Assembly (NCBI RefSeq): GCF_035506375.1
Contig: NZ_DATJPM010000029.1
Span: 6,902-30,901, forward strand
DNA from: Methanocella sp.
Lineage (GTDB): Archaea; Halobacteriota; Methanocellia; Methanocellales; Methanocellaceae
DNA: 24,000 nucleotides
Reading direction: 5' to 3'
The notes below the pieces were generated by a model, which was given only the letters and a program-made list of their open reading frames with translations, was not told the origin of the DNA and did not search any database. Each line of letters opens with the position of its first letter. Position 1 is the stretch's first letter. Position numbers and translations under genes: made by a program. Positions 471-20,373 of the stretch are shown here, piece after piece.

Positions 471-1982
471 TTGAGTGAACAGAACGATATTACACGGCTG
501 GCCGCAATGGCATTCATAGTACTTATCACTACGGTTGTGCTTATCAACGCTGCCGGTTCGATACTAAAGATAGATATCATAGGAAAAAGCACTGCCAGCG
601 GGCTGGTATATAAACCACCGCCCATTTATGTCAACCCGTCGATCATCGCGAACTTACCCACGCCGACGCCAACGCCGGCGCCCATCGTGATAAAACCGCC
701 AATTTATGTCAACCCGTCGATCATCGTGAAATTACCCACGCCCACGCCCACGCCCACCCCTGGGCCTATCGTGATAATACCGCCCATTTACATCAACCCG
801 TCGATCATCGCGAACTTACCCACGCCCACGCCCACCCCGGGACCGATACTCAGGCTCCCGCCGGGTGCCTTAGTTCCGAAGACATATATCCCGCCCAATA
901 TCATTCCAGGCAATATTGTACCGGGTAACACGGGCCAGGCCGGCGGCGACATTACGACGGTCACGCCGCTGCCTCCCGACACGCAGATACCCTCGCCCCG
1001 TCCCGGTGCAGTCGGGTCACCGGCGAGCCTGTGTCTGGATTCCATGGGGTATATCGCCAATAATGACAGCACTTTGACCGTGGACATCATCAGGCAGGGC
1101 GGCGACGGCATGGTATTTTACGAGATCGATGGGCTCAGGGGCAACATCGATCCCGCCGCTGCCGGGTGGTCGAACGTGAAGGGGGCCAGCGATTCGCCGG
1201 GCCAGACCATGGAGATGAAGATCTCGCTGAAGATACCGGCCGATAACAGTCTCGCGGGAAAATACTTCAATATCGTGCTCAAGCCCTTATCGCCCGAGAA
1301 TACGAAGGAGAGCGTGCCCTTCATGGCCACCATTACCATCCCCGACCTGAACGCGCCTCCGCAGCAGGCCACGGTCAGCTTCGATGCCGACGCGTACAGC
1401 CTGAACAAGGGCGGCTCGGCGCTGGTCACGATCCAGAGGACCGGGGGTAGCGGTGTCGTCTGGGTGAACGTCGTGGCCTACCCGGCCGCGGCGGACGGCA
1501 GCCCCGACCCGAACCCGAGCATGGTGAACTGCTGGTGGATGAACTCCTACAGCACGGCCCCGGGCGATAACATCCAGTTCGAGGTCCGCGCGAGCCAGGA
1601 CGTGAAGTCCGACGACGGCCTTGTGTTCCACCTGCCGCCCGCGGGCAGCACCGTGGACACGAGCGGTGACCTGGTCTATTACATGGACCTGACGCCCCTC
1701 GACAGCAGGCTGGCCGCAGCGGGAGAACCGTGGCGGGCTAAGGTGACGCTGCACAACGGCAACACGACCATCACGCCGATAACCACGACAGCGGCCGCAA
1801 AGACCGGCTCGCTATCGTCCGGCGGCTCGACCATCAACCAGGACATCAACACGATCGGAGGGAACAATGGCCAGGGCGATTCTGGCCAGGCAGTGGAGCT
1901 CAACCCGCAGCCTGAGCCGCCGGCGCCGGACTTCATAACGGGCATCGTGAACTGGTTCAAGGGATTGTTTGGGATGCACTGA
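471..1982 (+). CDS. Secreted/anchored cell-surface protein: N-terminal signal anchor, three proline-rich tandem repeats, two Calx-beta-like domains
   Basis: - TTG start is preceded by the SD-like TAGGAGGGG (456-464).
- The N-terminal hydrophobic helix is LAAMAFIVLITTVVLINAAG.
- The repeat is 3 x PPIY[VI]NPSII..LPTPTPTP..PI.
- The segments ATVSFDADAYSLNKGGSALVTIQRTGGSGVVWVNV and KYFNIVLKPL...ATITIPD resemble the start and end signatures of Calx-beta domains. Confidence 0.75.
   Translation: MSEQNDITRLAAMAFIVLITTVVLINAAGSILKIDIIGKSTASGLVYKPPPIYVNPSIIANLPTPTPTPAPIVIKPPIYVNPSIIVKLPTPTPTPTPGPIVIIPPIYINPSIIANLPTPTPTPGPILRLPPGALVPKTYIPPNIIPGNIVPGNTGQAGGDITTVTPLPPDTQIPSPRPGAVGSPASLCLDSMGYIANNDSTLTVDIIRQGGDGMVFYEIDGLRGNIDPAAAGWSNVKGASDSPGQTMEMKISLKIPADNSLAGKYFNIVLKPLSPENTKESVPFMATITIPDLNAPPQQATVSFDADAYSLNKGGSALVTIQRTGGSGVVWVNVVAYPAAADGSPDPNPSMVNCWWMNSYSTAPGDNIQFEVRASQDVKSDDGLVFHLPPAGSTVDTSGDLVYYMDLTPLDSRLAAAGEPWRAKVTLHNGNTTITPITTTAAAKTGSLSSGGSTINQDINTIGGNNGQGDSGQAVELNPQPEPPAPDFITGIVNWFKGLFGMH
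618..857 (+). repeat. In-frame tandem repeat, 3 copies (78, 84, 78 nt) encoding PPIYVNPSIIANLPTPTPTP(A/G)PIVI-like units
   Basis: The copies sit at 618-695, 696-779 and 780-857. The core ATTTATGTCAACCCGTCGATCATCG(C/T)GAA(C/A)TTACCCACGCC is nearly identical at the DNA level in all three. Confidence 0.9.
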
Positions 1983-2906: not shown

Positions 2907-3812
2907 TTACTTGCTCGACGTCGAGTTGTTCAGCAGGTCGGCGTAGAACAGCGGCCTTCCATACTGGGCCTGGCCGTACTCGGCTATCTTCTGCTGCGTC
3001 GGCTGGCTCGCCAGGTAGTCGATGAGCTTTTTCGCCATCGGGTAGTTGACCGACGGGTACTCCGTCTGGTTGACCGCGATCACGTCGTACTTGTTGATGA
3101 GCGTGACGGGGTCGTTCTCCACCAGTATGGTCAGGTTGAGGCTCTTCGACAGAGACTCGTAGGTGGCGATGTCGCTCAGCGTATAGGCCTGAAGCTGGTC
3201 CGCCATGCGCAGGGTATCGCCCATGCCCGAGCCGGTCGCCTTATACCAGGTGTTGGTCACGTTCGAAGGGACGGCCTTGAGGCTGGTCTTATTCCAGATA
3301 TCCCTGTTCTTTGTATCCGTGCCCGACGCGTCGACCCTCGCGACGAACGTCGACTTCGCCTGGGCGATCTTATCGTACGCCTGGGTGGCGTTCAGGCCCT
3401 TGATGCCCGCCGGATCGCTCGTGGGGCCGACGATCACGAAGAAGTTATGGGCGAACTGGGTCCTATTCCAGCCGTGGCCCTGGTTCATGAAGGTCGTCTC
3501 GGCCGCCGGGCTGTGCACGATGAGCACGTCCACGTCGCCGCTGGCGCCGTAGGCGATGGCCTGGCCGGAGCCCGCCGACAGGACCTGGACATTGACGTTA
3601 TTCTCCTTCTCGAAGTCGGGCAGGATGTAGTTGAGAAGGCCCGAGTCGTTCACGCTCGTGGTCGTCGCGAGCTTCAGCGTCTGTACGGGCGCCGTCGTAG
3701 GCACCGGCGTCGCCGTTGCGTTGCCGGCCTGGTTCGTGCAGCCGGACAGCGGCACTGCAATGGCTATAAAGACCATTGTTATGATCAAGAGTTTCAATAA
3801 TTTATTGGACAT
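2907..3812 (-). CDS. tupA: TupA-type tungstate (oxyanion) ABC transporter substrate-binding lipoprotein
   Basis: - Start is moved to the ATG at 3812 (MSNKLLKLLIITMVFIAIAVPLSGC), preceded by the SD-like GAAGAGG.
- The signal peptide ends in a lipobox-like LSGC.
- The mature part contains LKLATTTSVNDSGLLNYILPDFEK...SAGSGQAIAYGASGDVDVLIVHSPAAE...FVIVGPTSDPAGIKG.
- This closely matches the TTTS...DSGLL...GTG...GD.DV.LVH signature of TupA. Confidence 0.8.
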   Translation of the reverse strand: MSNKLLKLLIITMVFIAIAVPLSGCTNQAGNATATPVPTTAPVQTLKLATTTSVNDSGLLNYILPDFEKENNVNVQVLSAGSGQAIAYGASGDVDVLIVHSPAAETTFMNQGHGWNRTQFAHNFFVIVGPTSDPAGIKGLNATQAYDKIAQAKSTFVARVDASGTDTKNRDIWNKTSLKAVPSNVTNTWYKATGSGMGDTLRMADQLQAYTLSDIATYESLSKSLNLTILVENDPVTLINKYDVIAVNQTEYPSVNYPMAKKLIDYLASQPTQQKIAEYGQAQYGRPLFYADLLNNSTSSK

Positions 3813-3941
3813 AATAAACCTCTTCCATATACTACTTATGCAGAATAAATAAACGTAGCGTAAGTAAAAGCGATTGCCGGGATCGAAAAAACATCCCTGA
3901 GTTTTAGTGAACAGTTTCAATTTTCCGAAGCATTATTTGTC

Positions 3942-5405
3942 ATGGCTTATGGTAAATATTTAATAGGATGGGGGTTAAACATCGCTCCTATGGCTCCTGA
4001 AATGCAGCGCAAGCTGGCCCTGTTCGCCTGCCTGCTGCTCGTTCTCGCCGGCCTCCTGACCATGGTGCCGGACGCCTGGCTCCTCGGCCCGCAGGCCGCG
4101 TGCCACAGCTGCCACGAGGCGCAGTACCCGGCCAGCCACCTTCTTTACAGGACGAACTACATGGGCTATAACTCGCTGTGCTCCTTCGCCCCCTTCAGCA
4201 CGCTCATCCTCATCGGCACCGCCATGCTCATATTCCTCACGACGTTCCGCATCAAGTTCGAGCACTGGGGCCCGCAGTACCGCCTGATCGCGGGCATCGT
4301 GCTCTTAGCGTTCGCCGTGCTCACGGTGCTGCCGGCGCAGACTGAATACAGGGACCTGCTGGGATACAGCACGCTGGACCCGCTGGTGCCGGCGAGCACC
4401 ATTATCTTGCTGGCCCTGGCGGCCGCCGCCCTCATGGGCTATATCGTTTGCCCCTTCCTGATCATTATGAGATGCCGCTGCCCTGTCCTCGAAAAAGAGA
4501 TGGACTCGAATTACTCCCCAGACCGGGCGATCTTACGCTATTTGAAGATGGCCGCCACGGGAAAGCTGAGCGACGAGGACGTGCGCCGCCTGTACCGGTG
4601 CACGCTGTGCAACGGCTGCTGGATGGCCTGGTTTAACCGTAGCACGCGCGCCATGGCCGTGGGAAAAGGCATCGTGCCGGCCCACCTTGCCTCGATTAAA
4701 GGTTCAGTTGCCGCATACGGGAACCCCTATGGCATCGCGATTTCGGCGGACGGCGGGGAGCTGAAGGGCGCCGATACGGATACCGTGCTGTTCAAGGGCT
4801 GTACGGCGCGCTTCAAGGCCCCGGAGATACTCGCGGCCGCACGGGAATTGCTCGATAAAAAAGGCATTAAGTATAAACTCCTGGAAGGCGAGACCTGCTG
4901 CGGATATACGCTATATAATTTAGGCGACATCGACGCAGGAAATGCCGCCGTGGACAGAAATATCAAGGCCTTCCGGGACACGGGCGTGAAGCGCATCATA
5001 ACTATATGCCCCGGCTGCTACTCGGCCTTCAATAAATACTATAATGGGCGTGGCGGGTTCGACGTCGATGTCGCCCTGGCCATGGACCTGCTCAAGGATA
5101 TGAAGGTGCCGGCAAAGGGCGTGACGATACACGACCCGTGCCACGCCAAAGAGAAGAGCGAGACGGCCCACGGCATGCTCATGGGTGCCAGGGAAGACGG
5201 GACCGGCGCCTGCTGCGGGGCCGGCGGCGGCGTAATGTCCTTCGACCGGATGCTTGCCGGCGCGAGGGCCGGGAGGATCCTGGAGGAGAACGAGAGCACC
5301 GTCGTTACCTATTGCCCGTTCTGCTACCTCAACCTTTCGAGGGCCGGCGAAAAAAGGGTCGCCGACCTGTACGTTGTCCTGGCTCAGGGTGGCTTAAATG
5401 GTTGA
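3942..5405 (+). CDS. Membrane-anchored (about 4 TM) Fe-S protein with two CCG cysteine-rich domains (HdrD/DsrK/GlpC-like) and an N-terminal CXXCH
   Basis: - Hydrophobic helices occupy aa 25-42, 83-103, 115-131 and 150-175.
- CHSCH is at aa 54-58 (nt 4101-4115), in the predicted outside loop.
- The C-terminal half carries CTLCNGC, then the CCG-domain motifs FKGCTARF...ETCCGY...ICPGC and HDPCHAKE...GACCGAGGG...YCPFC.
- The start is uncertain. ATG 3990 (MAPEMQRK) is an alternative, preceded by the TATA-like AAATATTTAATA at 3953-3964. Confidence 0.75.
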   Translation: MAYGKYLIGWGLNIAPMAPEMQRKLALFACLLLVLAGLLTMVPDAWLLGPQAACHSCHEAQYPASHLLYRTNYMGYNSLCSFAPFSTLILIGTAMLIFLTTFRIKFEHWGPQYRLIAGIVLLAFAVLTVLPAQTEYRDLLGYSTLDPLVPASTIILLALAAAALMGYIVCPFLIIMRCRCPVLEKEMDSNYSPDRAILRYLKMAATGKLSDEDVRRLYRCTLCNGCWMAWFNRSTRAMAVGKGIVPAHLASIKGSVAAYGNPYGIAISADGGELKGADTDTVLFKGCTARFKAPEILAAARELLDKKGIKYKLLEGETCCGYTLYNLGDIDAGNAAVDRNIKAFRDTGVKRIITICPGCYSAFNKYYNGRGGFDVDVALAMDLLKDMKVPAKGVTIHDPCHAKEKSETAHGMLMGAREDGTGACCGAGGGVMSFDRMLAGARAGRILEENESTVVTYCPFCYLNLSRAGEKRVADLYVVLAQGGLNG

Positions 5406-6078
5406 TGTGCCCTTTGAAGGCCTCACGGTCGTGGAGCAATTCCACAGCCGGAAAAATAAGGTCTACCTGGTCGAGCGGGGCGGATGGCGCCTCGTCTTAA
5501 AGGTTTACGAGAACGGCCGCTGCAAGAACGAGGCCAGGACGCTTCGGGCGGCTCGAAGGGCAGGGATCGCGGTACCCGAAGTCGTGGACGTGGGCGATAA
5601 CGCGCTCCTCCTTGAGCTCATACCCGGCAGGTCCGTCAACGATTATCTGAATACGCCGTCCATGGGCGAAAAAGCGCTTGGCGTGGCCGCCTGGCTGGCC
5701 GCTTTTCACGGGGCTTTCCGCTCGGGCGATGAAGTGCTGGTCAAGTCGGACGCGATCTTTAAGAACTTCCTCGTCTCCGACCGCATCTATGGCATCGACT
5801 TCGAGCTGTCCCACCGGGGCCGGCCCGAGGAGGACGTGGGCGAGGCGCTCGCCTATTTACTCGATACCGAGCCCATGTTCTCGGAGGAAAAATATGCACT
5901 CGGCCGGCGATTCATCGGTCGCTACGAGGGGGATTCCGGGATAGCGCTAAAGAATATCGACGCCTTCGTCGCTAATTCCCTGAGACAGGCCGCAGAGTTC
6001 CGTCCGGGCCAGAGGGAGCTGTTATTAAAAAAGGCCCGGGATATCGAAGATTCGAGGCCTTTTACGCCTCGCCGATAA
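5398..6078 (+). CDS. Small atypical protein kinase, Bud32/RIO/LPS-kinase-like
   Basis: - The ATG overlaps the upstream stop (ATGGTTGA, 5398-5405).
- It has a kinase-like N-lobe (VYLVERGGWRLVLKVY...NEARTLRAARRAGIAVPEVVDV...LLLELIPG).
- The catalytic-loop-like SDAIFKNFLV has D and N spaced as in HRDxxxxN.
- IDFELS sits in place of DFG.
- Subfamily assignment is uncertain. Confidence 0.55.
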   Translation: MVDVPFEGLTVVEQFHSRKNKVYLVERGGWRLVLKVYENGRCKNEARTLRAARRAGIAVPEVVDVGDNALLLELIPGRSVNDYLNTPSMGEKALGVAAWLAAFHGAFRSGDEVLVKSDAIFKNFLVSDRIYGIDFELSHRGRPEEDVGEALAYLLDTEPMFSEEKYALGRRFIGRYEGDSGIALKNIDAFVANSLRQAAEFRPGQRELLLKKARDIEDSRPFTPRR

Positions 6079-7168
6079 CGAGCGGTATGTACATGTCGTC
6101 GGGCAGCAGAGTGCCGTGGTTGCCGCCGCCGCCCGTCAGGTTATGGCACCCGTGGTCGGCGTAAATGACCACGACCGTGCCATTATCCAGGCTTTTCAGG
6201 ACCTCGCCGACTTCGACATCGGCCGTTTTCACCGAGGCCAGCCCTTCGGGCGAATAGGGGCCATATTCGTGCATTTCCAGGTCAGTATCCTTGTAGTGGA
6301 CGACCATAAAGTCGGCGCCTGCCCGGTATTCGTCGATGGCCGCCGCGGTGACCTCGTCGTCAGCGGAGCCGTCGCCGTTCTCGTCGAGGGCGAACACCGT
6401 ATCGTTCACGGCTACGGGCGGGCTGTTGCCGTCGACCCAGACGGCCTTGAGCCCTTTGCGCTCGAGGATGTCGAAGACCGTGTCATTATAAGGCAGGTAA
6501 GACCGGAAATCCCCCCTGGAGAGGTTCGGCGCCAGCCCGGTGGCCATGGCCTTCGCGTTATTCTGGGTGATGGATGGGTAGACGCATACAGCCTTTACCG
6601 GCTCTCCCAGAGATGATATATTGCTGATCAGGCCCCTCTGCCGGGCGTCCTGATAGCGCTCGTAGCCGAAAGCGTCCAGATAGAACAGGACGACCCTGCT
6701 CGCCTTTTCGTGGATCAGGTCGTCCCTGCCCCCGGCGTCCAGGGCATAAAGGATAGACGGCGCGACGTCCAGCGTGGACACTCCGGGCTTATCGGCAAGC
6801 GTAACGTTAATGTCCGTGGGCATAGCCCTTTTGCCGGCATAGTAGACGCTGCCGTTGGGCTCAACAAGCATGGGGATGTCCTTGCTCGCCGCCGAGGCGG
6901 CATCTGTCCAGTTATATACCGTGCCATTATACGATATGGCCGTGACCGGATATACGCCGTAGTAAGCGAGGAATATTTCGAGCGGTATGCCGGTGACGCC
7001 GTCGTAGGTCTTCGCGTCGTTCGCCAGCTTTTCATAGAGCGAGCTATTGACGCTCTTCGACGAATCGCCGTTGATTGCGAACGACCACTCCCTGCCCGCA
7101 GTAATACAGCCCGAAAGGGCGATAAAAAAAAGAATGAGCAGGACTGGGAGAATTTTTTTAACGTCCAT
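6062..7168 (-). CDS. Exported lipoprotein of the nucleotide pyrophosphatase/phosphodiesterase (alkaline phosphatase superfamily) type, with an N-terminal accessory domain
   Basis: - The signal peptide has a lipobox (FIALSGC).
- NPP-type motifs are present: VVLFYLDAFGYERY, YPSITQNNAKAMATGLAP (nucleophile Thr context), HYKDTDLEMHEYGP (D..H..GP) and VIYADHGCHN.
- The N-terminal 130 aa or so contain GVTGIPLEIFLAYYGV, resembling the module repeated in the upstream genes.
- Its ATG at 7168 abuts the stop of the upstream gene (7169-7171). Confidence 0.7.
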   Translation of the reverse strand: MDVKKILPVLLILFFIALSGCITAGREWSFAINGDSSKSVNSSLYEKLANDAKTYDGVTGIPLEIFLAYYGVYPVTAISYNGTVYNWTDAASAASKDIPMLVEPNGSVYYAGKRAMPTDINVTLADKPGVSTLDVAPSILYALDAGGRDDLIHEKASRVVLFYLDAFGYERYQDARQRGLISNISSLGEPVKAVCVYPSITQNNAKAMATGLAPNLSRGDFRSYLPYNDTVFDILERKGLKAVWVDGNSPPVAVNDTVFALDENGDGSADDEVTAAAIDEYRAGADFMVVHYKDTDLEMHEYGPYSPEGLASVKTADVEVGEVLKSLDNGTVVVIYADHGCHNLTGGGGNHGTLLPDDMYIPLVIGEA

Positions 7169-8035
7169 TTACTCCGCCGTTATCGCTTCCACGCCCATCC
7201 AGTTTGCCCGGGCCTTATCGCTCGACGCTATCTTGATCTTGCCCTGGTCCCGGGTGACGAGCAGCCCGGCCGTCTCATCCCGGGTATAGGTCTTTTCGAC
7301 GACGGGGCCCTTAATGGTCACGTTCGAGTAGCCCGCGAATCCTTCCTTCGCCAGCAGATTATCAAGGCGGATGCCCGGCACGACGAAGGCCGACTGGTAC
7401 TGGTAATCGCGGTCCGTTCCCGCGTATCCGGTCGTCTTGCTGCTGTAGACCAGGCTGTCCATGCCATCATCGATCATTTGACCGTAGGTCAGCTCCTTCC
7501 CGTTGAGCTGTATGGAGTCGCCGGAATTGCCGCCCACCACGACGATGGCCCGGATGTTCTTTGCCCACACGTTCACGGGCATGTTGGGGCCGAGCACGCG
7601 AATGGAGTATTCCATGGGCACGAATATCGTCTCGTTGCTCATCTCGCTCTTATTTAGTGTCATCTCATAGTCGTCCGCATAGAAGACCAGCCGGTCGAAG
7701 CCGGTCACGCCGTGCGCCTGCAGGAAATCATAGACGGAGACCCCCTTCGATGGGACGCCTACGCCGTCCTGCTGCTTTAGCGTGGTGATCTCGATCTGCC
7801 TGAGCTTGAAGATGTCGTCGATGACCACGTATTCGTCCTGCGGCGTATCTCCGGTCAGCAGCAGCGTGCCATTCATGTTGACGTCGGGCGCGACCACGCT
7901 GCCGTGGCCCTCGTGGCACTGCTTGCAGTCGAGCTGCTGGGGCTGCGTGCTGGACGTATACGCGAAGGTCGCCGCCGCGGCCAAGACAAGCCCGATGGCC
8001 AGGCCGGCGATCAGGAACTTATACGCTTTTTCCAT
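7169..8035 (-). CDS. N-terminally anchored CXXCH protein with two sulfite-oxidase/YedY-like modules
   Basis: - There is one N-terminal TM helix (FLIAGLAIGLVLAAAATFAY).
- It is followed by DCKQCHEGHG (CKQCH = nt 7913-7927, minus strand). These are the only two Cys in the 288-aa protein.
- Two modules follow: GVPSKGVSVYDFLQAHGV...YADDYEMTL...IRVLGPNMPVNVWAKNIRAIVV, and VPGIRLDNLLAKEGF... Confidence 0.7.
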   Translation of the reverse strand: MEKAYKFLIAGLAIGLVLAAAATFAYTSSTQPQQLDCKQCHEGHGSVVAPDVNMNGTLLLTGDTPQDEYVVIDDIFKLRQIEITTLKQQDGVGVPSKGVSVYDFLQAHGVTGFDRLVFYADDYEMTLNKSEMSNETIFVPMEYSIRVLGPNMPVNVWAKNIRAIVVVGGNSGDSIQLNGKELTYGQMIDDGMDSLVYSSKTTGYAGTDRDYQYQSAFVVPGIRLDNLLAKEGFAGYSNVTIKGPVVEKTYTRDETAGLLVTRDQGKIKIASSDKARANWMGVEAITAE

Positions 8036-8041
8036 GGCTGA

Positions 8042-8977
8042 TCACGATAGCTCTATGGTGGCGAGCTTATTGACCCACGTGGAGAACTGCTGCGAGGGCA
8101 GGATGTCCCGTAGCGTGCCGTTCTGCTGGTCGATGGCGATGATGGCATCGTTGTCGGCCCGGATGTCGGTCATGTTGACCGTCTTATTGTAGCCGTCGGA
8201 CGCGATGAACCTGACCTTCGTGGCAGTGGTGTTCGCCGCGTAGTCGTCCAGGATCTTATTCAGGGACGGACCGGAAACGCTCAGCGTCGTGTTGTTTTTA
8301 AAGGGCACCGTCAGGGACTTGACCGGGTACGACTGGAGCTTCGACATCTTCAGCCCGATGGCGTTCGCGGTGACGCCGGTGATGTTCAGCACGAACGGCT
8401 CTGTGCTGGAGCCGGCGGCCTGGGTGAGCTCGATCTTGACCGGCACCTTCATCCACATCTCGCCCGGCTCGTCGGGCACGACTATGCGGATGGAGTTCTT
8501 GTTGATGTTATCGGTGAGCGCCGTGCCGTTCTCCTTCAGGCCGAGGATGGACTTTTCGAGCTGGGCCTTCGTGTAGACCTTCATGTACCCGTCGGACGCG
8601 GAGATCTTGAAGTTATAGTCCCCGGCGGGCAGGCCGGCCTTGTTGATAATATCCATCATGGGCACGCCCACGTAATCGCTTGTCGTCTCGGTGCCTACAG
8701 AGTTGATCATGACGACCCCGTCTTTCTCGACCAAGCCCATGGCCTTAATATCGGCATACGCAAGCGTCACGTTCGTGTTTCCGCCAACTACCTGGAGCTT
8801 ATAGTTCGGCACGTCCGTCAGGCCCGCCTTGAGGCCCGAATTATCGCCGCCGGCCGCGCTCGGGGCCGCCGTGGTCGGTGTCGCAGTATTAGTGTTCGTG
8901 CTCGTAGTGCAGCCGCTCAGAGCCGCGGCTACCAGAACAACCGTAAGAATCAATAGTATCGATGCATTATACCTCAT
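8042..8977 (-). CDS. Lipoprotein with two sulfite-oxidase/YedY-like modules (cysteine-free)
   Basis: - SD GGGGTGA lies upstream of the ATG at 8977.
- The signal peptide has a lipobox (AAALSGC) followed by a T/N/P-rich linker.
- Module 1 is YVGVPMMDIINKAGL...SASDGYMKVY...IRIVVPDEPGEMWMKVPVKIEL.
- Module 2 is GPSLNKILDDYA...IASDGYNKTV...FSTWVNKLATIEL. Confidence 0.7.
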   Translation of the reverse strand: MRYNASILLILTVVLVAAALSGCTTSTNTNTATPTTAAPSAAGGDNSGLKAGLTDVPNYKLQVVGGNTNVTLAYADIKAMGLVEKDGVVMINSVGTETTSDYVGVPMMDIINKAGLPAGDYNFKISASDGYMKVYTKAQLEKSILGLKENGTALTDNINKNSIRIVVPDEPGEMWMKVPVKIELTQAAGSSTEPFVLNITGVTANAIGLKMSKLQSYPVKSLTVPFKNNTTLSVSGPSLNKILDDYAANTTATKVRFIASDGYNKTVNMTDIRADNDAIIAIDQQNGTLRDILPSQQFSTWVNKLATIELS

Positions 8978-9030
8978 AGTTTCACCCCATTTTGTCTTAA
9001 GGTGTAATAAGCAAAGTAATTAGCATCTGT

Positions 9031-9042
9031 ATTATAATAAAC
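9031..9042 (-). promoter_or_regulatory. Possible internal TATA box in the 90-nt gap between ecfT and the downstream lipoprotein gene
   Basis: The minus strand reads TTTATTATAAT about 55 nt upstream of the ATG at 8977. This is the only sizeable gap in the 12862-6062 gene string. Confidence 0.3.
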
Positions 9043-9067
9043 ATGATGCAATCGATATTAGTTGCTT

Positions 9068-9877
9068 TCATGGAAAAGTGAACGACGCCGGCATGGTCAG
9101 GAAGTGGAGCCAGAGGTTAAGCGCCAGAACGGCCACGATGGCGACGGCCGTAGCGCTAATCACGGCATCCGTCGCCCGGAACGGCCTGCTCCGCGTGAAT
9201 GTGCGCGCCCGGCTGTAGCCGAACGCCCGGCTCTCCATGGAGATGACCAGCACGTCCACCTTGGACAGCGCCGAGACGATCAGCGGCATGAGCGTAAACC
9301 GTACGATTTTTATCACGCTCTTTATCCCTCCGCTGTCGATCTCCAGGCCCCGGGCCGCCTGGGCATTTCTCACGGTGCCGGCCTCAGATTCGAAGACCGG
9401 CAGGAAACGTATGGCCGTGACTATCATGAACCCGAAGCGGTAGGGCAGGCCCGCCTTCATGAGCGCGTAGGCCAGCTCGTTCGGCTCGGTGGTGACGATG
9501 AAGATGGCGCTGCCCAGGATGATGGTGAGGAAGCGGAAGGCGATGAGAAGCCCGTTGTAGACTCCCATGGTCGTGATGTTCACGGTGAAAAGCACGAGGG
9601 GTACGCTGACGATGAGGCCGCCTCCGCCCGTGAACAGCGCCTGGACGGCGACGATGAGCAGGGCGAAGGAGATGAAATATTTAGACGTGACCAGCGAGGC
9701 CAGCGTCCTGGACCGGAGCCATGCGGCGATCGCGAGCATGGCCAGGAAACACAGCAGCTCGGCCGTCAGGCTGCTGAACATAAAGATGGATACGCTGTAG
9801 GCGACGAGCACCAGCAGGCGTGTCAACGGGTTCAGCCGGTGTATAAAAGAAGAGCCCCCCTCGTAACGGAGCCTCAT
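9068..9877 (-). CDS. ecfT: ECF transporter transmembrane (T) component, EcfT/CbiQ family
   Basis: - The ATG overlaps the stop of the ATPase gene (9874-9877).
- It is a polytopic membrane protein.
- It opens with the N-terminal IHRLNPLTRLLVLV motif typical of CbiQ/EcfT.
- Coupling-helix-like motifs AIRFLPVFESEAGTVRNAQAARGLE are present. Confidence 0.8.
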   Translation of the reverse strand: MRLRYEGGSSFIHRLNPLTRLLVLVAYSVSIFMFSSLTAELLCFLAMLAIAAWLRSRTLASLVTSKYFISFALLIVAVQALFTGGGGLIVSVPLVLFTVNITTMGVYNGLLIAFRFLTIILGSAIFIVTTEPNELAYALMKAGLPYRFGFMIVTAIRFLPVFESEAGTVRNAQAARGLEIDSGGIKSVIKIVRFTLMPLIVSALSKVDVLVISMESRAFGYSRARTFTRSRPFRATDAVISATAVAIVAVLALNLWLHFLTMPASFTFP

Positions 9878-11385
9878 TTCCTGCAGCCCTCCGGCACATA
9901 GTCCTTCATTCCTGATTCCTCTATGCGCCGCATTGCCGCTTCCGGCTTATCGTCCACCAGGACGATGCCGTCCTTGAGGAGCACGATGCGGTCGCAGTAC
10001 CTGTAGACCATATCCATGTCGTGCGAGACCAGCACGAGGGCCTTGCCCCCGTCCCTCAGCCTTCGCAGCTCGCGGCACATGCGTGTCACGTTGGCGTAGT
10101 CCTGCCCGACGAAGGGCTCGTCCATGATGATGAGCGTGGGGTCGTGCGGCAGGACCGAGCATAAGTTCAGGCGCCGCTTTTCGCCGAAACTGATGCCCAG
10201 CGGATGCTTATCCCTGTATTTGGCCAGGCCGTACTTCTCTAGGACGGGATCGACGAGATGGGCGGCCTCATCCTCTCCCGTGCCGAAGTTCCTTAAGGCG
10301 AAGGCGGCCTCGGCGTAGACGGTCCTCTCGAATATCTGGTGGTTGGGGTTCTGGAAAATGAAGCCCGAGCGCCGGGCGATATCGGACGTCCGGGACTTTC
10401 CCACGTCCAGTCCCGTGACCGAAACGCTTCCCGAGTCGAATTTGTGGAGCCCCATGAGCACGTTGAGGAAGGTGGTCTTGCCGGAGCCGTTCGGCCCGAT
10501 GATGCCCACGATCTCCGAATTATTCACTTGCATGTCGATGCCGTGGAGCGCCTCCCTGCCGTCGTACGACGCGCGGAGGCCTTTAACCTCCACAACTGGC
10601 GTCTTTTTCGTCGTGCCGCCGTCCGCCGCGAAGGCCGGGCAATCGAGGCCAGGCAGCCTGACGCCGATAGAGTTTAGCTGCTCCCGGTATCTGCCAACGA
10701 CCTCCCGGGGCTCTCCATCCATGACGATCCGGCCTGCCTCCATGACGACCAGCCTGTCCGCAAGCCCCATGAGCCTGTCGAGCTTATGCTCGATAACGAT
10801 GATGGTCATTCCCGTATTCTCTTTAAGGCGCTCGATAGCAGAGAAGACGGTCGCTGTGCTGGACGGGTCAAGGTTCGAGGTGGGCTCGTCGAGGATCAGC
10901 GCCCGGGGATGCATGGCCAGCAAGGAAGCGATGGCCACCCGCTGCTTCTCTCCACCGGAAAGCTCGTGGATCTCCCGGCCCTTCAGGTATGAGGCCCCGA
11001 CAAGGGCCAGAGACTCATCGACCCTGCGGTTCACTTCATCCGCGCTCAGCAGAAGATTCTCGGGCCCGAACGACACCTCGTCCCGCACGTTCAGCGTGCA
11101 TAGCTGAGACTCGGGGTCCTGCTGCACGATGGCCACGAGGGGGGCGATGTCGGACAGTTCCACGTCCGTCGTGCGCTTGCCATCCACCTCGATAGAGCCC
11201 TCCATCCGGCCCTCGAATACGTGGGGGATGTACCCGCCCATGGCCAGGGCCAGTGTGGACTTGCCGCACCCTGATGGCCCCGTGATGGCCAGGAACTGCC
11301 CTTCAGGTATCTCCAGGCTGATGCCGTCCAGCGCTTTCCTGTCAGAGTTAAAAAAAGAGAACGACAGGCCCCTGATCGAGATCAT
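9874..11385 (-). CDS. ecfA: ECF transporter fused double ATPase (EcfA-EcfA')
   Basis: - Two ABC cassettes lie in one 503-aa protein.
- Cassette 1 has Walker A GPSGCGKST, signature LSGGEKQRV and Walker B LILDEPTSNLD.
- Cassette 2 has Walker A GPNGSGKTT, the degenerate signature ISFGEKRRL and Walker B LIIMDEPFVGQD. Confidence 0.9.
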   Translation of the reverse strand: MISIRGLSFSFFNSDRKALDGISLEIPEGQFLAITGPSGCGKSTLALAMGGYIPHVFEGRMEGSIEVDGKRTTDVELSDIAPLVAIVQQDPESQLCTLNVRDEVSFGPENLLLSADEVNRRVDESLALVGASYLKGREIHELSGGEKQRVAIASLLAMHPRALILDEPTSNLDPSSTATVFSAIERLKENTGMTIIVIEHKLDRLMGLADRLVVMEAGRIVMDGEPREVVGRYREQLNSIGVRLPGLDCPAFAADGGTTKKTPVVEVKGLRASYDGREALHGIDMQVNNSEIVGIIGPNGSGKTTFLNVLMGLHKFDSGSVSVTGLDVGKSRTSDIARRSGFIFQNPNHQIFERTVYAEAAFALRNFGTGEDEAAHLVDPVLEKYGLAKYRDKHPLGISFGEKRRLNLCSVLPHDPTLIIMDEPFVGQDYANVTRMCRELRRLRDGGKALVLVSHDMDMVYRYCDRIVLLKDGIVLVDDKPEAAMRRIEESGMKDYVPEGCRK

Positions 11386-11389
11386 AAGG

Positions 11390-11827
11390 TCAGGATACGT
11401 CCAGCTCGGTGGCCTGCTCTACCCACATGCCTCCCGCGAAGCCCCTGGCGATGACGCGGACCGTGTCGTTGTCGTTGATGAGGATGACGTTATCGTTAGC
11501 GGTCACGTTGGCAAGGTCGAACGTCTGGGCGTACCCGTCGGAGGCCCTGATGGTGACGTTCGTAGCGCCGCTCTTCACTCCGGCGTCGGAGAGCACTGTC
11601 CTCAGCGGGACGCCCGTATAGTTCGCCTCCGGCAGGTGCGTGACCTTGCCGTCAAGCTTCGCCGTGATGGTCACGAACCTGTCCTTATAGCTGTTCAGGT
11701 CGTACGTCCCGGGCTTATCTACCTGTCCCTTAACGTTAAAGCTCAGCTTCTTCTCAGTCGTGCATCCAAGCGACATAGCCATAATGACCATCACGATAAA
11801 TACAATAGCGATTCCTGATCTCCTCAT
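11390..11827 (-). CDS. Small lipoprotein consisting of a single sulfite-oxidase/YedY-like module (cysteine-free)
   Basis: The signal peptide has a lipobox (AMSLGC). The module is FVTITAKLDGKVTHLPEANYTGVPLRTVLSDAGV...RASDGYAQTF...VRVIARGFAGGMWV. By eye it is roughly half identical to the C-terminal domain of the upstream S-component protein. Confidence 0.7.
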   Translation of the reverse strand: MRRSGIAIVFIVMVIMAMSLGCTTEKKLSFNVKGQVDKPGTYDLNSYKDRFVTITAKLDGKVTHLPEANYTGVPLRTVLSDAGVKSGATNVTIRASDGYAQTFDLANVTANDNVILINDNDTVRVIARGFAGGMWVEQATELDVS

Positions 11828-11836
11828 AGTAAAGCC

Positions 11837-12862
11837 TCAATACACTTTTATCATTTTCATCTTATCGACCCATAATTGACCCGGATACCCGCGGGCGACC
11901 AGCCTCAGATGGCCGTCCTCCTGGACGATGATGAGGTCGTCGTTGTCCATGATATCGGAAACGTTGAACGACTGCGTATAGCCGTCGGAGCCGACCACGT
12001 CCAGGGTCTTCGCGCCGGCGCCTACCCGGGCGTCCCGGAGCACGTACCGCACGGGCAGCCCCGTGTAGTTCTGGGCCGGCAGGTGAGTGACGGCCCCGTC
12101 GAGCTTCGCGTTGATGGTCACGAACTCCGACGCGTAGGACGGCTGATAATAGTCCTTCGGGGACGCCACTGCGCCGGTCACGGTGAACTGGAGCGGATCG
12201 CCCTTTAGCCGGACCAGGGCAAAATAATATATCGCCGAGAACACGATGAGCAGCGCCAGGATGACGGCGACGACCCTCGTCGCCGTGAACCCGAAGCCCT
12301 TTTTCTCGGGCTTTTTCTCCCGGCGCACGATGCCCGCTTCCTCGAGATTGTCCATGATGCCCACGCTGAAGTATCCCGCGAACACCGCCCCTGAAACGAT
12401 GGAAAGCAGGCCGACCGCGGCTAACAGGAATATGTTCGGGTAGACGTTGAACAGAAGCTGGCTCGCGAGCACGTAGGCGAAGGAGCCCAGGATACCGCCG
12501 GTAAAGTAAGAGAGCTTCGGGTACTTCTTAAACGGCCAGAAGCCGATCTCCACGAAAATGCCCTCCAGGAGCGAGATGAACACGACGAAGATGCCATGGG
12601 AGCTCCCGGAGAGGAATTCTACTAAGCCCTTGAGAAGCCCTCCCCCGACGCCGGCGCCGGGTTTTTTTGTGATGGCCACCATCAGGACGAGCCAGAAGAT
12701 GTGCAGGCCGGCCACTATCTCGCCGGCGCCGTACGGCACGCCTGCAAGGCGGTTGATGACGTTAGCCAGGTACTGCACGTACGTCGACATCACGCCGCCC
12801 AGAGACGCCAGGATGGCGACCGTGAGCAGGTCCCTGGTGGTGAAATAGTATTTTGGCGCCAT
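11837..12862 (-). CDS. ECF-type S (substrate-capture) component fused via an extra TM helix to a C-terminal sulfite-oxidase/YedY-like module
   Basis: - aa 1-170 form about six hydrophobic helices of S-component size, in the first position of an ecfA/ecfT operon.
- aa 171-189 are a K/R/E-rich linker (DNLEEAGIVRREKKPEKKG).
- aa 190-217 are an additional TM helix.
- aa 221-341 are the module (FVTINAKLDGAVTHLPAQNYTGLPVRYVLRDARV...GSDGYTQSF...LRLVARGYPGQLWV).
- The S-component subfamily and substrate are not identifiable by eye. Confidence 0.6.
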   Translation of the reverse strand: MAPKYYFTTRDLLTVAILASLGGVMSTYVQYLANVINRLAGVPYGAGEIVAGLHIFWLVLMVAITKKPGAGVGGGLLKGLVEFLSGSSHGIFVVFISLLEGIFVEIGFWPFKKYPKLSYFTGGILGSFAYVLASQLLFNVYPNIFLLAAVGLLSIVSGAVFAGYFSVGIMDNLEEAGIVRREKKPEKKGFGFTATRVVAVILALLIVFSAIYYFALVRLKGDPLQFTVTGAVASPKDYYQPSYASEFVTINAKLDGAVTHLPAQNYTGLPVRYVLRDARVGAGAKTLDVVGSDGYTQSFNVSDIMDNDDLIIVQEDGHLRLVARGYPGQLWVDKMKMIKVY

Positions 12863-12886: not shown

Positions 12887-12925
12887 AACAATGGTTTTTT
12901 GTGTAATCCGAGTATAACTAGGACA

Positions 12926-12952: not shown

Positions 12953-13723
12953 ATGGAAGAATGGCTTTTGTGGGCGGGCGCGGCGGCGTTCTGTGTCTTT
13001 GCCCTATCGACGCTCCTGCTGAAAAAGGGTAAGATACCATCGTATATTTCCTTCGCCGGCTGCCTGCTCGTCATCGGCGCGCTTTTATTGCGCTGGTATA
13101 CGCTGGGCCGGCCCCCGTGGGCGACTCTCTACGAGACGGCCGCGTTGCTGGCGCTGGCTACGGGCGTCGCTTCCGCTTACTGCTATCGCCTTAAGGAAAC
13201 GCCCGCGTTGTACCTTCCGCTGGCCGCCGTGGCCATCGTATTGCTGGTATTTTCAGCCATGTCCTGGGAAGCCAACCCGTCGCTCTCGCCGGCGCTTGAG
13301 AGCGGCTGGCTGCTCATCCACGTGCCCGTCGTCATCCTGGCGTACGCCGCCTTATCCGTAGCGTCCATCGCCTCCGGCGCCCTCATCGCGCTGAAAGCAC
13401 TGGGCAGGGGCGACGATAGAACAATAAAAAGGCTCGACTCGATCGCTTACAATCTAATTATCGCGGGGCTGGCATTGCTTGTACTGGGCATCGTCATGGG
13501 CGCAATGTGGGCGAAAGCGGCCTGGGGCGCCTACTGGTCATGGGACCCCAAGGAGACCTGGTCGCTCATCACGGCCTTAGTCTATGCGGCTTACCCTCTC
13601 GCCCGGCGGGCGGGCATGAAGCCCGAGGACTCGGCGTTCATCGCGCTACTGGGGCTCCTGGCGATACTTTTCACTTACCTGGGCGTATCCTACCTGATAC
13701 CGGGCCTGCACAGCTACGCTTAA
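12953..13723 (+). CDS. ccsA: CcsA/ResC/CcmC-family heme-handling (cytochrome c assembly) membrane protein with WWD domain
   Basis: - Start is moved to the ATG at 12953 (MEEWLLWAG). The track ORF begins at a non-ATG codon at 12899.
- It is a polytopic membrane protein.
- The motif WAKAAWGAYWSWDPKETWSLI (nt 13508-13555 for W...E) matches the W-rich WGxxWxWDPKE heme-binding WWD signature.
- Conserved His candidates are in LLIHVPV and in the C-terminal GLHSYA. Confidence 0.8.
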   Translation: MEEWLLWAGAAAFCVFALSTLLLKKGKIPSYISFAGCLLVIGALLLRWYTLGRPPWATLYETAALLALATGVASAYCYRLKETPALYLPLAAVAIVLLVFSAMSWEANPSLSPALESGWLLIHVPVVILAYAALSVASIASGALIALKALGRGDDRTIKRLDSIAYNLIIAGLALLVLGIVMGAMWAKAAWGAYWSWDPKETWSLITALVYAAYPLARRAGMKPEDSAFIALLGLLAILFTYLGVSYLIPGLHSYA

Positions 13724-19698: not shown

Positions 19699-20310
19699 TT
19701 AGAACTCGTATGTGCCGAAGCTGTTGTCGGCCATATTAAGCGTCTTCTCGAAGAGCGTCGCCTGGCCGCCCCGCCACTGGGCTACGATAGTGACGGTCGC
19801 GGGCACGTTCTTGTTGTGGTAGACGTCGAACGAAACATCCTTCCGGTCCTCCCACTGCATTACCCCGATGTTCTGGGGCTTCGTGATCGTGTTGGTCAGG
19901 TTATGCACGGTGCCATCGGCGTCTATGACGGTGGTGGGCGTGGTCACCTTGTAGAGCAGGACGATGTCGAGCACCAGGTTATCCTTGTTCACGTTATTCA
20001 GGGTCATGGTGGCCGTTTCGTGGGCCTGCCCCTCGAAGCCGGTGGTATCCCAGGTGATCTTGATATTCGAGACCGACACGGGCGAGTTGTTCGAATAGAC
20101 GGGCCACGGGGTCGGCGTGGGCGTTGGTGTCGCTACGGGCGCCGGAGTCGGGGTTTCGGAGGGCACGGCGGCGGCCTCGGGCGTCGGCACGGCCGTGGCA
20201 TTCGGAGTAGCCGTGGGCGTCGGCGTCGCGGCGGGCGCCGAGCATCCGGCCGCGGCCACGCCGGCGGCGATCAATAAAACGATGAGCACGGGCTTAAATT
20301 CCATAAACAT
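19699..20310 (-). CDS. Lipoprotein of unknown function with a Pro/Thr/Ala-rich linker and a beta-rich C-terminal domain
   Basis: - Start is placed at the ATG at 20310 (the track's 20313 is TTG), preceded by the SD-like AAGAGGA.
- The signal peptide has a lipobox (VAAAGC).
- The linker is APAATPTPTATPNATAVPTPEAAAVPSETPTPAPVATPTPTPTP.
- No recognisable catalytic motif is present. Confidence 0.7.
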   Translation of the reverse strand: MFMEFKPVLIVLLIAAGVAAAGCSAPAATPTPTATPNATAVPTPEAAAVPSETPTPAPVATPTPTPTPWPVYSNNSPVSVSNIKITWDTTGFEGQAHETATMTLNNVNKDNLVLDIVLLYKVTTPTTVIDADGTVHNLTNTITKPQNIGVMQWEDRKDVSFDVYHNKNVPATVTIVAQWRGGQATLFEKTLNMADNSFGTYEF

Positions 20311-20373
20311 CAATCCTCTTGTGTAGTCAAACCCTTAAAGTATATAACCAAGTTGCTGATACGGTACATAAGG

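Follow-up and report, generated by a model that had tools for sequence, protein, structure and literature searches.

We describe a gene cassette of Methanocella sp. in which an energy-coupling factor (ECF) transporter is encoded together with several copies of a small, cysteine-free domain (the module) of the sulfite oxidase (SUOX) fold, one of them covalently fused to the S component of the transporter. The cassette lies in a stretch of 24,000 nucleotides (the window; NCBI RefSeq assembly GCF_035506375.1, contig NZ_DATJPM010000029.1, positions 6,902 to 30,901 of the forward strand). We put at about even the chance that this operon is a dedicated group I ECF importer belonging to the regulon of the molybdenum and tungsten cofactors (Moco and Tuco), and that it salvages a pterin related to these cofactors by hydrolysis, capture, import and rephosphorylation. 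An earlier note on this DNA had speculated about a pterin, a metal cofactor or a nucleotide-linked cofactor as the substrate, an idea that is strongly reinforced by the Moco/Tuco riboswitch found over bacterial orthologous cassettes.

Organization of the operon

The listing of open reading frames (ORFs) in the window returned, with exactly the coordinates and junctions given in the earlier note, seven co-directional minus-strand genes from 12862 to 6062, which overlap or are separated by short gaps apart from a single gap of 90 nt. In operon order the junctions are +9 (S341/L145), +4 (L145/A503), -4, an overlap (A503/T269), +90 (T269/L311), +6 (L311/C288) and 0 nt (C288/P368). The product labels carry the length in amino acids (aa):

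S341, 11837-12862, minus strand: YkoE-family ECF S component (aa 1 to ~185; PF09819 E 2e-21), a K/R-rich cytoplasmic linker, a seventh transmembrane helix (TM7, aa 197-215) and a C-terminal, extracytoplasmic, SUOX-like module (aa 222-341, positions 11840-12199; partial PF00174 at residues 264-332).
L145, 11390-11827, minus strand: one-module lipoprotein with lipobox SLGC (PF00174 E 5e-8), 40% identical to the S341 module.
A503, 9874-11385, minus strand: fused EcfA-EcfA' ATPase (TIGR04521 E 4e-115 and TIGR04520 E 1e-112, two stretches each).
T269, 9068-9877, minus strand: EcfT, the transmembrane coupling component of the CbiQ family (PF02361 E 1e-28).
L311, 8042-8977, minus strand: lipoprotein with lipobox LSGC and two modules (~aa 57-196 and 200-311; PF00174 in two stretches, E 3e-10).
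C288, 7169-8035, minus strand: putative monohaem c-type cytochrome with a transmembrane (TM) anchor, the motif CKQCHEGHG (CxxCHxxHG, aa 37-45) and two modules (aa 55-169 and 172-288).
P368, 6062-7168, minus strand: lipoprotein with lipobox LSGC, a degenerate module (aa ~24-110) and a type I phosphodiesterase/nucleotide pyrophosphatase (NPP) domain of the AlkP superfamily (PF01663 E 1e-13, residues 248-344; PF01676 E 8e-8).

The Pfam families that had been predicted (weak or partial PF00174, PF02361, the ECF ATPases and an S-component family, here PF09819) were all found, while scans with Pfam and NCBIfam gave no family match for C288. An S component, two ATPase domains and a CbiQ-family T component are encoded together, as in group I ECF transporters. 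ECF transporters are defined as lacking an extracytoplasmic binding protein; this operon encodes an outward-facing module on S341 and four further exported module proteins.

The module is a trimmed sulfite oxidase domain

BLASTP connects the C-terminus of S341, L145 and both halves of L311 (E 1e-35 to 1e-4). A narrow module profile, made from 106 fusion homologues, matched S341 (E 1e-53), L145 (2e-47), L311-A (1e-9) and L311-B (7e-15) and C288-A only weakly, and failed to recover C288-B or the N-terminus of P368; hhalign with this profile also gave weak values (E 6e-4 and 0.023). With a broad profile of 168 modules gathered from a library of 1.84 billion proteins, hhalign recovered C288-A (E 2e-11, 97%) and C288-B (E 2e-7, 94%). 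The P368 N-terminus reached E 1e-4 (58%, 81 columns) with its C-terminal Trp strand missing, and a reversed-sequence control gave E 0.33. At the level of sequence, six of the seven related modules claimed earlier are solid, and the seventh, at the N-terminus of P368, is probably a truncated and degenerate copy.

None of the modules in the window contains a cysteine, as had been claimed. The cysteines of these proteins lie elsewhere, in the lipoboxes (L145 C22, L311 C23, P368 C21), in the CKQCH motif that precedes the modules of C288 and, twice, in the phosphodiesterase domain of P368. Family-wide, 88 of 169 modules are free of cysteine, and there is no cysteine column at the hairpin of the molybdenum (Mo) ligand.

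The predicted SUOX fold is borne out by an AF2 model of L145 (pLDDT 90.5), which Foldseek matches to SorA, YedY, SoxC and nitrate reductase at E 2e-7 to 1e-5 with a TM-score on the query (TMq) of ~0.7. The module of ~115 aa covers only one quarter to one third of these enzymes (targets of 260-450 aa; TM-score on the target, TMt, 0.24-0.39). The size-matched matches (TMt ~0.6) are structures of PruR, namely 7KOS (TMq 0.62, TMt 0.61), 7KOM, 7KP2 and 7RKB, the last of which is Klebsiella PruR with neopterin bound. In the model of C288 (pLDDT 84.8) two consecutive domains follow each other with the strand and helix order of the L145 model, and here too Foldseek returned SoxC and PruR. The module thus has the fold of a SUOX enzyme, yet neither the Mo-ligating cysteine nor the full-length Moco domain with its deep cleft.

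PruR is a periplasmic, non-catalytic, cysteine-free trimmed SUOX domain, in which the pterin is held between Y104 and W160 and hydrogen-bonded via N102, and its truncated cleft reportedly lacks the length to take up intact Moco (PMC11194511). In a profile search of the Protein Data Bank with the module, PruR ranked sixth with a profile E of 0.13. Across 169 divergent modules the most conserved positions are D97 (100%), G72 (99%), Y99 (93%), G98 (92%) and W135 (84%), and the basic residues are weakly conserved, a pattern that suits stacking and hydrogen bonding of a heteroaromatic ring. By motif pattern, and not by superposition, D-G-Y plus W is compatible with N-x-Y plus W of PruR, while the PW motif, which replaces the Cys in PruR, is absent and a conserved Gly stands at the hairpin tip. 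Judged from motif spacing and fold, again not from superposition, the D-G-Y and W of the module may correspond to the N102/Y104/W160 clamp.

In the protein library the module is fused to Peripla_BP_2, to a PstS/TupA-like periplasmic binding protein (PBP; P0350), to PKD arrays, to SLH domains and to a dockerin-bearing protein, and it forms arrays of up to 10 copies (P0263, 1556 aa). Proteins that carry it or are encoded beside it include P0269, P0276, P0298, P0350, P0265, P0336, P0341, P0397 and P0404, and further module-fused or adjacent proteins are found at L018 1729-2955 and L063 13710-14660 (L numbers denote sampled loci). The variety of fusions, with Peripla_BP_2, TupA-like PBP, PKD, SLH and dockerin, suggests a general capture or relay role comparable to that of NEAT domains. 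We also observed that the NCBIfam family NF041762 ('GEGP motif-containing diheme protein') has the module core in common, at positions ~155-209, which hints at another family that combines haem with the module.

The same diversity could be taken to mean that the modules bind no transported ligand at all and act as structural spacers, oligomerisation domains or envelope anchors of SUOX origin on many surface proteins, since arrays of up to 10 modules and fusions to PKD, SLH, dockerin and unrelated classes of binding protein are what a generic surface building block would show. We hold this to be improbable. The one-module lipoprotein L145 has no obvious structural role, and the retention of D97, G98, Y99 and W135 at 84-100% over 169 divergent modules points to a binding site. 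Moreover, the sole characterised relative of that size, PruR, binds a ligand, and that the modules strictly accompany one transporter family and one riboswitch class (see below) argues for a common ligand. The view that the modules are non-catalytic capture or scaffold domains recruited to an ECF importer is supported by fold, topology, co-occurrence and the identity of the S component.

S component and topology of the fusion

The membrane part of S341 is a genuine ECF S component, as first proposed: it belongs to PF09819, and its nearest solved structure is Bacillus subtilis YkoE (5EDL), to which it aligns over residues 13-180 (phmmer E 6e-5). Mapping the six YkoE helices onto S341 places all K/R-rich loops in the cytoplasm; there follow the linker RREKKPEKK, TM7 (197-215) and the module, so that the module is predicted to lie outside. 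The lipoprotein nature of the paralogue L145 is consistent with this placement, and the lipoboxes SLGC, LSGC and LSGC are present. The extracytoplasmic position claimed for the fused domain is therefore upheld.

In YkoE thiamine is bound by Tyr46, Trp49, Glu77, Gln95 and Asp131 (PMC5037267). At the corresponding positions S341 has Ala for Tyr46, His for Trp49, the conserved Glu77, Glu for Gln95 and Val for Asp131. Throughout the fusion family His54 and Glu82 are invariant, and the His in place of Trp49 is near-invariant. With Glu77 kept and the thiazole contacts lost, the S341 pocket would be related to the thiamine pocket without being one. Thiamine or its pyrimidine moiety HMP, suggested by the COG4721 annotation, was rejected as the leading substrate because of the lost thiazole contacts (Tyr46/Asp131) and because no TPP riboswitch is associated with the cassette.

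The cassette recurs in strictly anaerobic Archaea and Bacteria

The fusion of S component and module (S::module) was found full-length in 235 species-level genomes of Archaea and Bacteria. Its archaeal carriers comprise Methanocella, Thermoplasmata/Methanomassiliicoccales, Methanofastidiosia and Thor-, Hermod-, Heimdall-, Odin- and Promethearchaeota, and its bacterial carriers Syntrophomonadaceae, Syntrophaceticus, Dethiobacteria, Desulfitobacteriaceae and the cultured Anoxynatronum. All carriers are strict anaerobes. Gene neighbourhoods were counted in 80 fetched loci, 'with room' denoting those whose sequence extends far enough. The fused ATPase gene ecfAA' adjoins the S::module gene in 70 of the 72 loci with room, ecfT follows in all 53 with room, and 63 of the 80 loci have extra module-bearing proteins within 9 kb. 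The association of the module with ECF genes, which might have been a chance juxtaposition in a single genome, is thus maintained across both Archaea and Bacteria.

Serine dehydratase, IF-2B, RpiA, amidohydrolase, GNAT and DUF389 neighbours were considered as partners and set aside as lineage-specific synteny. No GGDEF or EAL protein was found in the window or in the sampled loci. Small genes without a family assignment stand directly after ecfT in L018 (13486-14466 and 14463-15026) and in L005 (5312-5872, with one weak module match). Locus L001, labelled [Eubacterium] cellulosolvens (GCA_975970955.1), is a contig with NMD3, Arf/Ras/Roc and PTS_2-RNA genes that looks archaeal (Asgard-like); probably the taxonomic label is wrong or the contig is a contaminant.

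Many bacterial cassettes are preceded by the Moco/Tuco riboswitch

Bacterial vitamin transporters are usually under riboswitch control, for which reason 36 bacterial loci (~405 kb) were scanned with Rfam. The Moco/Tuco riboswitch RF01055 was matched 22 times, with scores of 54-79 bits where the gathering score is 36. In 16 of the 23 loci with at least 400 nt of upstream sequence it lies in cis ahead of the first cassette gene and on its coding strand, typically ending 86-292 nt before it, and terminator-like hairpins come after the aptamers. Each of the three alignments inspected has a deletion of the P3 stem, and a variant lacking P3 has been linked to tungsten-cofactor genes (Regulski et al., 2008; PMC2408646). 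In locus L063 one riboswitch is followed by genes for a TupA-like solute-binding protein (SBP), a permease, an ATPase, a MOT1-type transporter, a Metallophos protein, S::module, AA' and T, and a second one stands ahead of a 1618-aa module protein. In Anoxynatronum buryatiense the order is riboswitch, kinase homologue, module-SLH protein, 1504-aa module protein, module protein, Metallophos protein, S::module, AA' and T.

RF01055 is the sole recurrent riboswitch: no TPP, THF or other vitamin riboswitch was found ahead of any cassette in the scanned bacterial loci. A TPP riboswitch in L082 (2441-2553, minus strand), ~2.4 kb ahead of the Moco riboswitch and on the other strand, appears unrelated to the cassette. 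In Anoxynatronum L018 (15227-19391; the same in L020) a different ECF S component (PF12822, 178 aa) and a Moco enzyme of the xanthine dehydrogenase family are encoded behind a second Moco riboswitch; this S component, too, may be linked to the cofactor. Rfam and tRNA scans of the window returned nothing, and accordingly no archaeal riboswitch is assigned to the Methanocella operon. The published Moco regulon comprises biosynthesis genes, oxyanion transporters and cofactor-dependent enzymes, with no ECF or cofactor importer (PMC2408646, PMC3766115).

Phosphodiesterase and kinase partners

A genuine Metallophos catalytic domain is encoded in 47 of the 67 loci with room, in 34 of them immediately upstream. 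This count is based on a catalytic-domain hidden Markov model (HMM) with Pfam checks, as a single-sequence HMM over-counted via a module-like tail; Pfam confirms the domain in L018, L030, L034, L058 and L060. Most of these proteins have an N-terminal hydrophobic segment, they are often fused to 1-10 modules, their catalytic motifs are intact in 51 of 53, and they most resemble the cyclic-nucleotide phosphodiesterases SpdA and CpdA. The Methanocella operon has no Metallophos protein and encodes the NPP-type P368 instead. Two non-homologous families of exported phosphodiesterases, both module-fused, are recruited to the same cassette. In Hermod- and Promethearchaeota (L011, L016, L021, L022 and others) no phosphodiesterase is recognisable, and a two-module protein of ~370 aa without a Pfam match sits upstream of the S gene, in the position of the phosphodiesterase.

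The second partner is encoded just outside the coordinates covered by the earlier note and was not seen there:

Kinase gene, 5398-6078, plus strand: small cytoplasmic APH/RIO/Bud32-like kinase (PF01636 E 2e-10), convergent with the operon (P368).

In an unbiased clustering of neighbourhood ORFs, this APH/RIO-like kinase emerged as a partner with orthologues (E 1e-14 to 1e-44) beside the cassette in 33 of 80 loci. Such loci come from Methanocella, Methanofastidiosia, Thermoplasmata, Thorarchaeota, Syntrophomonas, Dethiobacteria, Desulfosporosinus and Anoxynatronum. The kinase retains its catalytic residues (Lys, Glu, Asp…Asn and Asp) and has no signal sequence.

A phosphatase outside and a kinase inside follow a generic logic of vitamin salvage, and the cargo might be a heterocycle other than Moco, such as neopterin, monapterin, a methanopterin or folate fragment, or thiamine/HMP, in which case the Methanocella system would not be isofunctional with the riboswitch-controlled bacterial ones. 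The S domain falls in COG4721/YkoE with the pyrimidine-binding Glu77 conserved, PruR binds monapterin and neopterin in a cleft said not to fit Moco, and APH-family kinases include thiamine kinase. We nevertheless consider this distinctly unlikely: RF01055 alone recurs before the cassettes, whereas TPP, THF and other vitamin riboswitches are missing there, the residues that contact thiazole in YkoE are replaced (Ala for Tyr46, Val for Asp131) and a near-invariant His stands at Trp49, and the shared partnership of S::module, kinase and phosphodiesterase ties Methanocella to the bacterial loci.

Oxyanion transporters next to the cassette

Upstream of the kinase gene the window contains a further gene that is possibly associated with the cassette:

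TupA-like gene, 2907-3920, minus strand: orphan TupA-like (tungstate-type) solute-binding protein (NF041772 TupA E 2e-49, under the family cutoff), with no permease or ATPase gene adjoining.

A homologue (58% identical) stands in L007 beside the gene for the CCG membrane protein described below, and a PBP_like_2 gene in L008, both in the position that the gene has in the window; in all, an orphan TupA-like gene is found near the cassette in 3 of 4 Methanocellales loci. Among the 80 loci, 6 have TupA-like genes adjoining the cassette, L018/L020 having a solitary TupA-like SBP gene, and P0350 is a TupA-like PBP (PBP_like_2) fused to two modules. TupABC and MOT1 oxyanion transporters share an operon or neighbourhood with the cassette in L063/L069, L031 and L043.

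These links invite the reading that the cassette imports the metal itself, as tungstate, molybdate, or thio- or complexed W/Mo, with the modules, the TupA-like proteins and the 'phosphoesterases' as oxyanion traps. Metallophos and AlkP active sites can bind tungstate and molybdate as phosphate mimics, TupA-like SBPs are fused to modules (P0350) or encoded as orphans near the Methanocellales cassettes, and the S pocket keeps two acidic residues (E82 and the Glu at the position of YkoE Gln95) that could ligate W or Mo in the manner of WtpA. The Moco/Tuco riboswitch itself classically controls the mod and tup transporters (PMC2408646). Metal uptake nonetheless appears unlikely to us. The S component belongs to the organic-vitamin family YkoE, not to the CbiM/NikM metal type, the conserved residues of the module are aromatic or acidic (D, Y, W) rather than basic, and the conserved cytoplasmic kinase would have no role. 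Where complete TupABC and MOT1 systems are encoded in the same operon or adjacent to it, the cassette would be redundant, which argues that its cargo is something other than free tungstate or molybdate. We also know of no ECF transporter for oxyanions.

A putative haem layer in Methanocellales

The window contains two further genes that, together with C288, point to haem and electron transfer:

CcsA-like gene, 12953-13723, plus strand: CcsA/ResC-type, cytochrome c synthase-like haem-handling protein with the motif WGAYWSWD (PF01578 E 9e-38), divergent from the S341 gene at ~90 nt.
CCG membrane protein gene, 3942-5405, plus strand: four TM helices, an extracytoplasmic CHSCH after TM1 and a cytoplasmic HdrB/TfrB-like double CCG domain (PF02754 E 3e-24).

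The CxxCH motif and its link to CcsA were not seen in the earlier note. The motif CxxCHxxHG of C288 (CKQCH at aa 37-41, extracytoplasmic and just past the TM anchor) is kept in 57 of 58 homologues, and the distant locus L004 has a true C288 homologue (E 2e-27) after ecfT with the motif kept. Orthologues of L311 are present in L006-L008. The CcsA/ResC-like gene (WG[AS]YWSWD) lies divergently ~90 nt upstream of the cassette in four Methanocellales loci whose outer flanks differ, L006, L007 and L008 having it in the same position as the window. Its product scores 182.5 bits against the TIGR03144 cutoff of 187.6, and no ResB/CcsB partner was seen in the window. The start listed for this ORF (TTG at 12899) is probably wrong: the ATG at 12953 gives 256 aa, in line with homologues of 252-260 aa, and leaves a divergent intergenic region of 90 nt as in L006-L008. 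The CCG membrane protein keeps CH[ST]CH and its synteny in 4 of 4 Methanocellales loci and is a possible transmembrane electron conduit, a Methanocellales-specific neighbour of the cassette. In these loci its gene and the kinase gene lie at the end of the cassette opposite the CcsA-like gene. Speculatively, C288 would be a c-type haem protein, possibly fed by this conduit, that acts on a redox-labile ligand bound to the modules. Methanocella is a textbook methanogen 'without cytochromes'; the CxxCH proteins beside a dedicated CcsA-like gene suggest that it makes at least one c-type haem protein. Haem itself as the cargo, to which the Peripla_BP_2 fusions, the CxxCH motif and the CcsA gene might have pointed, was set aside, as the haem genes are confined to Methanocellales and one other lineage.

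The module, haem and CCG membrane proteins could alternatively form an extracytoplasmic redox enzyme, a divergent sulfite oxidase- or MsrPQ-like system to which the ECF transporter supplies a cofactor or is unrelated. SorAB, sulfite oxidase and MsrPQ all combine the SUOX fold with a haem partner, the NF041762 dihaem protein has the module, and CxxCH, the CcsA-like gene and the HdrB-like CCG protein are conserved in Methanocellales. Such an enzyme is highly improbable, considering that the modules lack the Mo-ligating cysteine and about one third of a Moco domain, that nearly all other lineages with the cassette have no haem or CcsA genes, and that 235 genomes encode the module and the S component as one polypeptide.

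Three other ORFs of the window, at 471-1982 (plus strand, 503 aa), 19699-20313 (minus strand, 204 aa) and 21895-22689 (plus strand, 264 aa), have no Pfam match, the 503-aa ORF having no NCBIfam match either; they may be unannotated genes or non-coding.

A model for pterin salvage

From the observed gene content, fold, topology, co-occurrence and riboswitch linkage we infer a cargo, enzyme specificities, a relay and a role for haem as follows. The exported phosphodiesterase, NPP-type in Methanocella and Metallophos/cNMP-phosphodiesterase-like in most other lineages, would cut a phosphodiester- or pyrophosphate-linked cofactor from other cells, for example molybdopterin dinucleotide. The modules would capture the pterin moiety via the Asp-Gly-Tyr plus Trp site and hand it on to the module anchored on the S component, in the way that haem passes along NEAT domains. 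The S component would bind the cargo, EcfAA'T would import it using ATP, and the cytoplasmic APH/RIO-like kinase would rephosphorylate it for re-entry into Moco/Tuco assembly. In Bacteria the cofactor would switch the cassette off via the P3-lacking, Tuco-type form of the Moco riboswitch. In Methanocellales the putative two-module monohaem protein, perhaps matured by the CcsA-like protein and possibly acting with the CxxCH/CCG membrane protein, may keep an oxygen- and redox-labile ligand reduced. The restriction to strict anaerobes fits an oxygen-labile cargo, and the fusion of modules to Peripla_BP_2, a class that handles bulky metal cofactors, also speaks for this model.

Several points weigh against it. 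As the PruR cleft is reportedly too short for Moco and the module is smaller still, there may be no room for intact Moco, and the cargo is equally likely to be a smaller pterin fragment or precursor. The riboswitch evidence comes from bacterial orthologues that are only 35-40% identical to the Methanocella protein, and the TupA::module fusions and the orphan TupA-like gene point towards an oxyanion. No recognisable phosphodiesterase is encoded in about 30% of the loci with room, and in about 60% of loci no kinase gene lies within 10 kb. If an NPP or other phosphodiesterase cleaves a dinucleotide, molybdopterin keeps its phosphate, so that the need for the kinase step is less obvious, and we know of no biochemical precedent for the salvage of dephospho-molybdopterin or for such a kinase step.

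Significance

Literature searches for a link between ECF transporters and the Moco riboswitch, for a Moco transporter or for S-component fusions yielded no prior description. The architecture had been called apparently undescribed; this no longer applies to the cysteine-free trimmed SUOX domain, for which PruR sets a precedent (PMC11194511), while its recruitment to an ECF importer, the partnership with phosphodiesterase and kinase, and the control by the Moco/Tuco riboswitch are new here as far as we could find. How pterins cross the membrane was stated to be unknown in a 2026 review (PMC13259868). The cassette is a concrete candidate for the membrane passage of Moco or pterins, with the cultured hosts Anoxynatronum, Desulfosporosinus and Methanocella. 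Nematodes are documented to take up Moco, and to our knowledge no Moco transporter is known. We tentatively entertain the further possibility, about which we remain somewhat doubtful, that the cassette is the first transporter of a Mo/W cofactor or of molybdopterin in any organism, serving an anaerobe-specific salvage to which Methanocella adds a haem system that keeps the cargo reduced.

The cassette changes the textbook picture of ECF transporters as working without an extracytoplasmic binding protein, extends the Moco/Tuco riboswitch regulon to a candidate cofactor-type importer and would add to the signalling role that PruR-like domains have in Proteobacteria a role in nutrient capture in Archaea and Firmicutes. 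If the model is true, Moco/Tuco would be a public good in anoxic communities and ECF transporters could use extracytoplasmic binding domains. Syntrophy and methanogenesis depend centrally on W/Mo formate dehydrogenases and aldehyde oxidoreductases, and the sharing of the cofactor of these enzymes would affect the limits on anoxic communities, digesters and the methane emitters of rice fields.

Comparison with known systems

The closest transporter is YkoEDC, the group I ECF system for thiamine/HMP of B. subtilis, with which the cassette shares the S family (PF09819/COG4721), the dedicated operon with a double ATPase in one chain and a T component, regulation by a riboswitch in Bacteria and the conserved pyrimidine-contacting Glu77. 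Unlike YkoE, the S component of the cassette has an extra TM helix and an extracytoplasmic module, and it has lost the thiazole contacts and exchanged Trp49 for His; the riboswitch is Moco/Tuco instead of TPP, and the partners are a phosphodiesterase, module proteins and a kinase instead of YkoF.

PruR of Agrobacterium, Vibrio and Klebsiella (7KOS, 7KOM, 7KP2, 7RKB) is, like the module, a small, secreted, trimmed SUOX domain without the Mo-ligating cysteine. The N-x-Y plus W site of PruR may have its counterpart in the D-G-Y plus W of the module, the sequence similarity is marginal (profile E 0.13), and the module lacks the PW motif and has the Gly at its hairpin tip. Whereas PruR signals in Proteobacteria to its operon partner DcpA, a diguanylate cyclase/phosphodiesterase, the modules occur in arrays and are tied to an ECF importer in anaerobic Archaea and Firmicutes. 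The Moco domains of the SUOX enzymes (SorA, SoxC, YedY/MsrP, nitrate reductase) have the same fold and PF00174 homology (SoxC E 1.6e-6), their bacterial members are, like the module, extracytoplasmic, and association with haem partners is a further common trait. With ~115 aa compared to ~170-250 aa, no Cys ligand and no dimerisation domain, catalysis is not expected of the module.

As regards regulation, the cassette has in common with the Moco/Tuco regulon (moa, mod, tup and Moco-dependent enzymes) the same P3-lacking RF01055 aptamer with terminator-like hairpins. The Isd/NEAT haem relay of Gram-positive bacteria is unrelated but offers an analogy, in that multiple copies of small, beta-rich surface capture domains feed an ABC importer and IsdE is of the Peripla_BP_2 class, to which modules are fused as well. 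In contrast to Isd/NEAT, the fold and ligand of the module differ, and the terminal acceptor of the putative relay would be the S component of an ECF transporter.

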